64,000 nucleotides of DNA from a virus (IMGVR_UViG_3300049182_000044:96001-160000); one strand, 5' to 3'. Shown: positions 59,247 to 59,624, numbered from the stretch's first letter. A program made the numbers and translations. The notes: a model not told the origin generated them from the sequence alone.

Positions 59247-59624
59247 TTAGTTTCCTTCAATTACGTGATGCGTTTCAGTTTTCAGCACGTTGTTTGATTC
59301 ATCAACGTACACCACAGTGTGAGTCAGTCCAGCAATTTCATCCGGCGTCACATGCTCAAGTCGATTGATGACCACTTTGTCACCGGCACAGAACAAACGA
59401 GCAGGAGGCCCGTTCAATGTAACCGCACCAGGAGCTCCTGGGATAATGTAGGTCTCCCAATGATTACCGTTCGCCAAGTTGTTCACATGAACAAACTCAT
59501 AAGGCAGAAGTCCCGCAGCTTTGATAAGCTCGGGACAGAGACTGATCGAACCCTTGTAGTTCAAGTTCGCATCAGTCACTGTTGCCCTATGAATCTTCGC
59601 TGTAATGAAGATTCGTTGCTTCAT
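59247..59624 (-). CDS. panD: PanD-like pyruvoyl-dependent decarboxylase proenzyme
   Basis: AKIHRATVTDANLNYKG|S cleavage site, AAGLLPYE.V, NG..WETY, LNG..AR and GDKV. Confidence 0.88.
   Translation of the reverse strand: MKQRIFITAKIHRATVTDANLNYKGSISLCPELIKAAGLLPYEFVHVNNLANGNHWETYIIPGAPGAVTLNGPPARLFCAGDKVVINRLEHVTPDEIAGLTHTVVYVDESNNVLKTETHHVIEGN

Follow-up and report, generated by a model that had tools for sequence, protein, structure and literature searches.

Background

The PanD family (EC 4.1.1.11) is treated as having a single function, in which aspartate is decarboxylated to give the beta-alanine of vitamin B5; all of its members are named so by genome pipelines, and "panD" is counted among the metabolic genes in viromics surveys. 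A divergent member of this family, P0001 (125 amino acids), is encoded on the minus strand at positions 59247-59624 of the stretch of viral DNA analysed here (the window; 64,000 nucleotides, IMGVR_UViG_3300049182_000044:96001-160000), which comprises positions 96001-160000 of a 281,566-bp virus record estimated by CheckV to be complete. The phage probably comes from a soil metagenome, the only public run with DNA of this phage; no RNA run is listed for it. P0001 belongs to a coherent clade, common in large phages and named here HWETY/NGPPA after its sequence motifs, from which the aspartate-recognition groups have been removed while the catalytic engine has been kept, and it is most likely, with a probability of about 0.55, a stand-alone pyruvoyl decarboxylase of a substrate other than aspartate.

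In the PanD of Mycobacterium tuberculosis, the carboxylate of pyrazinoate is hydrogen-bonded by the amides of Ala74 and Ala75 (2.7 Å each) and is also held by Arg54 from the neighbouring subunit, and the R54A enzyme is inactive (PMC6969166). The beta-carboxylate of isoasparagine is likewise held by Arg54 in the Helicobacter pylori enzyme, according to a passage of PMC3975893 that cites Lee and Suh. Arg54, Gly73, Ala74 and Ala75 are among the residues strictly conserved in aspartate decarboxylases (PMC3314653), and Thr57 and Tyr58 are the processing residue and the proton donor, respectively (PMC3975893, PMC6969166, PMC3314653).

In phages, homologues of SpeD, another pyruvoyl enzyme, have turned into decarboxylases of ornithine and arginine (PMC9992855, PMC10407285), and P0001 resembles them in being apparently a small phage pyruvoyl proenzyme with its core kept and its pocket changed, encoded by a stand-alone auxiliary metabolic gene. 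The resemblance is functional and not one of homology, the SpeD fold being unrelated to the double-psi beta-barrel of PanD, and whereas the substrates of the SpeD-derived enzymes were measured, P0001 is known from sequence and models. CrpG, the beta-methylaspartate alpha-decarboxylase of cryptophycin biosynthesis, is a PanD homologue with a substrate other than aspartate; since this substrate keeps the beta-carboxylate, the carboxylate site is expected to persist in CrpG, whereas it is dismantled in P0001.

Achromobacter phage 2-1 (82.7 kb, OQ974181.1) is the only cultured phage found with a member of the clade. Its gene 59 ("panD") encodes a protein 49% identical to P0001, with the motifs HWETY and HGPPAH, but is located between RNaseH and DNA polymerase genes and not among tail genes as in the window. 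The literature yielded no paper characterizing gene 59, on PanD homologues that lack Arg54, or on the function of phage PanD proteins.

Family assignment and predicted structure

P0001 is a PanD-family proenzyme. Its open reading frame (ORF), from an ATG at 59624-59622 to a TAA at 59249-59247, matches Pfam family PF02261 (Asp_decarbox) with 116.6 bits (cut-off 25; E value 7e-34) over profile positions 3-114 of 115, and the PDB contains 25 distinct PanD chains that match it as well. Against the NCBIfam model TIGR00223 (panD), however, its score of 100.3 bits falls short of the equivalog cut-off (106 bits). The AlphaFold2 model (24 relatives in the alignment) has a mean predicted local distance difference test score (pLDDT) of 94.5, and Foldseek aligns it with the PanD proenzymes 1ppy, 2c45 and 1pqe at template modelling (TM) scores of 0.84-0.92, whereas the fold class ranked after them (Cdc48 N domain, designed double-psi beta-barrels) reaches only about 0.5. 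There was no match to the AdoMetDC (SpeD) fold: P0001 matches PF02261 alone, and its top structures are all PanD.

Like PanD, P0001 is predicted to form a tetramer. A four-copy model scored 0.96 versus 0.42 for the best control, although PanD tetramers have been solved and this pass may reflect the memory of the model; contact agreement between runs was at least 95% and the pLDDT of the partner was 94. In calibration, 21 of 30 proteins whose solved structures are pairs of one chain attained the mark, as did none of 23 proteins solved as single chains. The tetramer prediction is evidence of likeness to PanD, not proof of assembly.

Catalytic residues and substrate pocket

The residues of P0001 were read from the translation and the DNA codons and aligned to the PanD sequences of M. 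tuberculosis and Escherichia coli. The catalytic set is complete: Lys10, His12, Tyr23, Gly25|Ser26, Thr58, Tyr59 and Asn71 are the equivalents of E. coli Lys9, His11, Tyr22, Gly24|Ser25, Thr57, Tyr58 and Asn72. All of these except Tyr23 had been listed as retained in an earlier sequence-only reading of the window, which the codons and alignments uphold. The Gly25-Ser26 codons (59547-59552, minus strand) mark the predicted self-cleavage site, at which Gly and Ser are each found in 100% of 242 family members.

The carboxylate-binding site is different. His55 occupies the position of Arg54 within the sequence His55-Trp56-Glu57-Thr58-Tyr59 (codons at 59448-59462, minus strand), and Gly72-Pro73-Pro74 occupies that of Gly73-Ala74-Ala75 within Asn71-Gly72-Pro73-Pro74-Ala75-Arg76 (59397-59414, minus strand), placing Pro-Pro where PanD has Ala74-Ala75. 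Because proline has no backbone NH, the donors of Ala74 and Ala75 are gone, and by alignment all three carboxylate donors of PanD (the Arg54 guanidinium, the Ala74 NH and the Ala75 NH) are replaced in P0001. The sequence-only reading had pointed out both His for Arg54 and NGPPA for NGAAA, though not the lost NH donors that the latter entails; each of these changes holds in the alignment to the M. tuberculosis and E. coli proteins, and its proposal of an altered substrate pocket is strengthened by the loss of three donors and by the extension of the change across the clade.

Further changes are fixed in the clade: His46 and Asn48 (Asp45 and Trp47 in E. coli), which the sequence-only reading had overlooked, and Trp56 (Phe55). 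The codons of His46-Val47-Asn48 are at 59481-59489 (minus strand), and this segment is in the inter-subunit cleft of the tetramer model; His46 and Asn48 are present in 100% of 102 clade members and variable in canonical PanD. Glu57, on the other hand, is ordinary, RFETY being the commonest canonical motif. Proline at PanD position 74 is found in 27% of canonical enzymes, whereas at position 75 it is found in about 0-1% of them versus 99% of the clade; judging from these sequences, it is Pro at position 75, not 74, that marks the clade and is essentially unique to it. In the tetramer model, predicted contacts across the subunit interface near the cleavage site connect His46 with Glu57, His55 with Trp56, and Asn48, Asn49, Leu50, Gly53 and Val85 with Pro73 of the neighbouring copy.

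Phylogeny and distribution of the clade

A search of 5.8 billion proteins identified 659 relatives of P0001 with an E value of 1e-5 or less, HWETY being present in 92 of the best 120. The clade consists of about 100 sequence clusters with 50-68% identity. Residues were tabulated for 102 HWETY, 41 other "xW" and 99 canonical sequences, and with the groups thus set by motif, position 54 is Arg in 100% of the canonical sequences and His in 100% of the clade. Within the HWETY group, which His55 and Glu57 define, Trp56 is invariant like His46 and Asn48, and Pro73 and Pro74 are present in 95% and 99% of members. The equivalents of the catalytic Lys, His, Tyr, Gly, Ser, Thr, Tyr and Asn are conserved at 93-100% across the 102 members (97-100% for Gly25|Ser26, Thr58, Lys10, His12 and Tyr59), and the catalytic machinery is therefore under selection.

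A maximum-likelihood tree (165 rows, 130 columns) places 93 of 95 canonical rows beyond a branch with support of 98/91, and the main HWETY clade (44 rows, including P0001) has support of 99/92. The non-canonical side also includes SWQTY, LWRTY, FWRTY and TWQTY groups, along with a few RWKTY intermediates, these with NGPPA; position 54 is Ser, Leu, Thr, Phe or Pro in the sister subclades. The deep order of this tree is rough, since bootstrapping had not settled completely and the alignment offered no more than 130 columns. By these sequence comparisons the clade is large, mostly phage-borne and distinct from canonical PanD. Another phage variant, gp87 of the Gordonia/Rhodococcus phage Jace (L129:3998-4423), has RWTTY and NGGGAR and forms, with a few metagenomic proteins, a long branch within the canonical clade. 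The ESM Atlas also contains 286-residue proteins of candidate division WOR-3 in which a NUDIX hydrolase is fused to a PanD-like domain.

Most members with usable context are encoded on large viral contigs of 62-245 kb in IMG/VR, and others on metagenomic contigs of 127-206 kb with phage-like gene content. In a cellular survey of one genome per species (about 185,000 prokaryote species), the best 80 loci included four HWETY and two LWRTY types, the rest being canonical. Two metagenome-assembled genomes (MAGs), G001 and G003, encode both a variant and a canonical PanD, and the canonical copy of G003 is located beside panC.

In the bacterial lineage nearest to P0001 (L003), the PanD-like gene (8001-8369) appears as an insertion when compared with L145, a syntenic locus that encodes an orthologue (41%) of the membrane protein at its flank but has 1.5 kb of apparently gene-poor sequence (L145:6923-8412) in place of the PanD-like gene. 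The insertion indicates that the PanD-like gene is mobile. A fragment in the gap of L145 looks transposase-like, as judged by eye. This insertion, together with the differing position of the gene between genomes, would suit a recently acquired passenger ("moron") with no role in the phage cycle, possibly inactive. Such a status for P0001 is improbable: its reading frame is uninterrupted and encodes the full set of catalytic residues, a GAAGG ribosome-binding site and translational coupling are present, its base composition is that of the neighbouring genes, and about 100 clusters of the clade have been conserved at the level of identity given above.

Among Patescibacteria, 7 of 301 genomes have a match, most of which are canonical Arg54 types that are also without panC, and for this reason the survey of this group does not discriminate between substrates. 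Four small Patescibacteria genomes (G080, G091, G113 and G237) encode a canonical Arg54 PanD, with no panC found in them; in those Patescibacteria the purpose of canonical PanD itself may be other than pantothenate synthesis.

Gene contexts of the relatives

The surroundings of the relatives are varied. The PanD-like gene is accompanied by genes for ribonucleotide reductase and ThyX (L002), by DnaJ/ClpB and holin-like genes (L005), by PrkA, DUF444 and SpoVR (L116), by glycosyltransferases and an Asp/Arg hydroxylase (L117), or by miscellaneous genes (L118), and an all-against-all comparison of the ORFs of 25 loci revealed no universal partner. The context of the TWQTY subclade (L146) was uninformative. 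A 582-residue protein encoded upstream in L003 and L007 was considered as a partner and rejected, its 41% orthologue being present in the same synteny without a PanD-like gene. A shared upstream partner was likewise rejected, the 547-residue protein of the window, the 582-residue protein of L003 and a 423-residue protein of L119 being unrelated to one another.

Three MAGs possess a cassette in which a gene abutting the HWETY gene encodes a protein of about 420-440 residues with TPR and ATP-grasp regions and no strong Pfam match (L009:6377-7708 in a betaproteobacterial MAG; L119:5730-7001 in a Beijerinckiaceae MAG; L143:3756-4997 in a further MAG). The pairwise E values of these proteins are 3e-31 and 2e-143, and in Acidobacteriota proteins of the ESM Atlas the same TPR/ATP-grasp fold is fused to a pyridoxal phosphate (PLP)-dependent decarboxylase (PF00282). 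The cassette suggests an uncharacterised decarboxylase-ligase pathway in proteobacterial MAGs. A 225-residue protein (P0146) on a 1-kb metagenomic contig (L132) combines a TupA-like ATP-grasp fragment with an HWETY PanD-like protein reduced to its C-terminal two-thirds; this fusion is probably a frameshift or an assembly chimera, and hints that the two genes are adjacent.

Related phage contigs encode PP-loop ATPases (AsnB/QueC/MnmA-like, 290-394 residues, several paralogues) no more than a few kb from the PanD-like gene (L005:6237-7986, L095:7126-7995 and L117:11745-12653; also L091 and L095-L099). The ATPase gene adjoins the PanD-like gene in L005 and L095, on the same strand in L095, and is 4.7 kb away in L117. 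A radical-SAM gene is also found near the PanD-like gene of L098.

In both genomes examined that encode LWRTY-type proteins, one a Patescibacteria MAG and the other that of a different uncultured bacterium (L025:5980-7430 and L035:5959-7462), the PanD-like gene overlaps or abuts the gene of a divergent CysM/SbnA-like PLP-dependent beta-replacement enzyme. Two GH130 genes are located upstream on the opposite strand at these loci.

ATP-grasp and PP-loop enzymes convert carboxylates to amides, and beta-replacement enzymes produce beta-substituted alanines. The contexts come from a handful of lineages and suggest, for the wider NGPPA group, either the decarboxylation of beta-substituted alanines or of aspartate beta-amides, or the supply of amines to ligases.

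Predicted reaction and substrate

On the model of its family, the 125-residue proenzyme would assemble into a PanD-like tetramer and cleave itself between Gly25 and Ser26, Ser26 becoming the pyruvoyl cofactor, to give a predicted beta chain of 25 residues and alpha chain of 100 residues. The pyruvoyl group would then form a Schiff base with the alpha-amino group on its substrate, CO2 would leave, and Tyr59 would carry out reprotonation. P0001 departs from PanD in the pocket for the side chain, located where subunits meet, which seems to have been rebuilt with His55 and Pro73-Pro74, along with the clade-wide His46, Asn48 and Trp56. Since Arg54 and the Ala74/Ala75 donors are replaced, the substrate most likely lacks a free side-chain carboxylate. 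Candidates, in view of the pocket and the gene contexts, may be neutral beta-substituted alanines, such as asparagine, N4-substituted asparagine, serine, cysteine or 2,3-diaminopropionate, or a basic amino acid. The loss of NH donors with retention of a network of Glu, His and Asn would suit the NH2 of a side-chain amide better than a carboxylate, and a basic amino acid is considered because of the ornithine and arginine decarboxylases that arose from phage SpeD. P0001 would be the product of an auxiliary metabolic gene that converts an amino acid of the host into an amine.

A rather unlikely alternative is that P0001 is an ordinary aspartate 1-decarboxylase, producing beta-alanine for pantothenate and coenzyme A synthesis by the host or for some other use, in which His55, protonated through Glu57, replaces Arg54. 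The complete catalytic set, the PanD fold and a TIGR00223 score just short of the cut-off are all compatible with it, and members of the clade are annotated as aspartate 1-decarboxylases in public databases, as in Achromobacter phage 2-1. Yet R54A abolishes the activity of the M. tuberculosis enzyme (PMC6969166), and in P0001 all three donors have been replaced together. The drift of position 54 to Ser, Leu, Thr, Phe and Pro in the sister subclades would be unexpected if a carboxylate still needed to be bound there.

Pantothenate metabolism had been doubted in the sequence-only reading because panB and panC were missing. Neither panB (PF02548) nor panC (PF02569) was found in the whole 281,566-bp phage record, so that this observation holds well beyond the window, and the doubt is supported further by the canonical PanD that accompanies the variant in G001 and G003 and by the supported branch that divides the clade from canonical PanD. 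The absence of panC alone is no argument against aspartate decarboxylation, because canonical Arg54 PanDs are present in the Patescibacteria genomes in which panC was not found.

Several observations weigh against a substrate other than aspartate. In G002, a MAG of 1.7 Mb that is probably incomplete, panC is present and the sole PanD is of the HWETY type, which would fit a working aspartate decarboxylase and is the chief observation on the side of retained aspartate activity. His55, if protonated and paired with Glu57, could nonetheless hold a carboxylate, and Pro at position 74 is by itself compatible with canonical PanD, as its frequency there indicates. The candidate substrates were reasoned from pocket chemistry alone. 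The phage contexts are without a single conserved partner, and the links to ligases are limited to a few lineages, the ligases not having been found in the phage that encodes P0001: its record was searched for the TPR-ATP-grasp protein, TupA ATP-grasp, spermidine synthase and GT17, with no match to any of them.

The fold and the chemistry of P0001 are familiar; what is new is a PanD clade with a dismantled aspartate site, which pipelines routinely misname if its substrate differs. In that case many database annotations would be wrong, PanD would be the second phage pyruvoyl scaffold, after SpeD, to have been repurposed for amines, and ligases that form amides may use the amine in decorating glycans, nucleotides or metabolites. 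The small size of the protein (125 residues) and the availability of a cultured phage, Achromobacter phage 2-1, make the hypothesis directly testable.

The tail-fibre operon and its Hint-like protein

In this phage, the gene of P0001 is the last but one in a tail-fibre operon. The minus-strand unit upstream of it includes genes for a 228-residue Peptidase_S74 fibre protein (PF13884, 1.5e-13), a 158-residue protein and a 502-residue tail-fibre-like protein (61267-63953, minus strand; matches to tail-fibre PHROGs), followed by the gene of a 547-residue protein, P0270 (59621-61264, minus strand). The ATG of P0001 (59624-59622) shares the sequence ATGA (59624-59621) with the TGA of P0270 (59623-59621), an overlap that had been correctly described from the sequence. 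On the other side, a single base separates the TAA of P0001 from the ATG at 59245 of a 121-residue ORF, P0271 (58880-59245, minus strand), with which the transcription unit ends. The statement in the sequence-only reading that P0001 ends one nucleotide before the next tail gene is therefore accurate as to the gap but not as to the tail label, which is unsupported because P0271 is an orphan for which a search of 5.8 billion proteins gave no homologue. P0271 also has no match in Pfam, PHROG, NCBIfam or PADLOC, and P0001 has none in the PADLOC defence library.

P0270 has a glycine-rich domain followed by a Hint/intein-like domain. Its Pfam matches (Hom_end_hint, Hint and Gly_rich_2) are below threshold, and it matches a minor tail protein in PHROG (6e-7). 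The Hint/intein-like domain makes up the C-terminal third (59621-60154) and begins at Cys371 with the block CFPAGSQV, which resembles the N-terminal splicing block of PI-SceI (E value 0.0016); the protein ends in IVNGYVVGA, without the His-Asn needed for splicing. From its sequence, the Hint domain of this glycine-rich fibre protein looks like a cleavage-only type, and since the C-terminal His-Asn is missing, resolution of the thioester by an outside nucleophile is chemically conceivable.

These neighbours invite the interpretation that P0001 is a maturation factor of the tail fibre, its amine product capping or modifying P0270, or else a structural component of the virion. The ATGA overlap, the terminator shared past the next small ORF, the fibre genes that flank P0001 on the same strand, and the intein-like Cys371 block without the C-terminal His-Asn would all be in keeping with this role. 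However, none of roughly 20 other distinct loci of the clade that were examined is located among tail genes, none is beside a Hint protein, the 547-residue and 121-residue neighbours have no homologue in the viral collection, and the strictly conserved catalytic residues argue for an enzyme, not a structural protein. A role in the fibre is thus quite improbable. The sequence-only reading had offered either a new decarboxylase substrate or a structural or maturation role in the tail: the former is now favoured, as a decarboxylase of a substrate other than aspartate, and the latter is not borne out, the tail setting being unconserved. The neighbourhoods of relatives that were examined are varied, and a random genomic context in relatives was among the outcomes that the reading had named beforehand as refuting it; by this measure the tail role fails. 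If P0001 is instead such a stand-alone decarboxylase, its late transcription with the fibre genes would be an accident of this genome and not an indication of function.

A more specific form of the fibre role, and one that is highly improbable, is that the last three genes of the operon constitute a chemical capping system, in which the amine produced by P0001 would attack the Hint thioester at Cys371 and free a fibre tip whose C-terminus is amidated by a decarboxylated amino acid. Such a system would parallel, in a virus of bacteria, the capping of Hedgehog by cholesterol. No relative in the collections searched shows the pair of Hint and PanD-like genes, and P0270 and P0271 are orphans there.

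Other searches and sequence features

A megablast search with positions 56000-64000 against 50,697 phage records gave no match, nor did pattern scans of viral contigs with the 547-residue and 121-residue neighbours. A 2178-residue protein, P0121, with 30 matched stretches is not PanD-like: it is a perfect tandem repeat, in which the summed weak matches look significant. A scan for consensus promoters and terminators found none above the shuffled expectation, and the window shows no enrichment of AAYYGTAAW, a candidate promoter motif of the phage, which does not occur near P0001. An intrinsic-terminator-like hairpin was nevertheless read from the sequence at 58835-58868 (minus strand), 11 nucleotides past the stop codon of P0271. 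It has a GC-rich stem of 7 bp (GCCCTAC and GTAGGGC), a loop of 14 nucleotides and a T-run (TTTTGT), and was missed by the consensus scan because the loop limit of the latter was 8 nucleotides. The hairpin and T-run imply that P0001 and P0271 close the minus-strand unit. This putative terminator divides the fibre/PanD-like unit from a collagen-like fibre gene.

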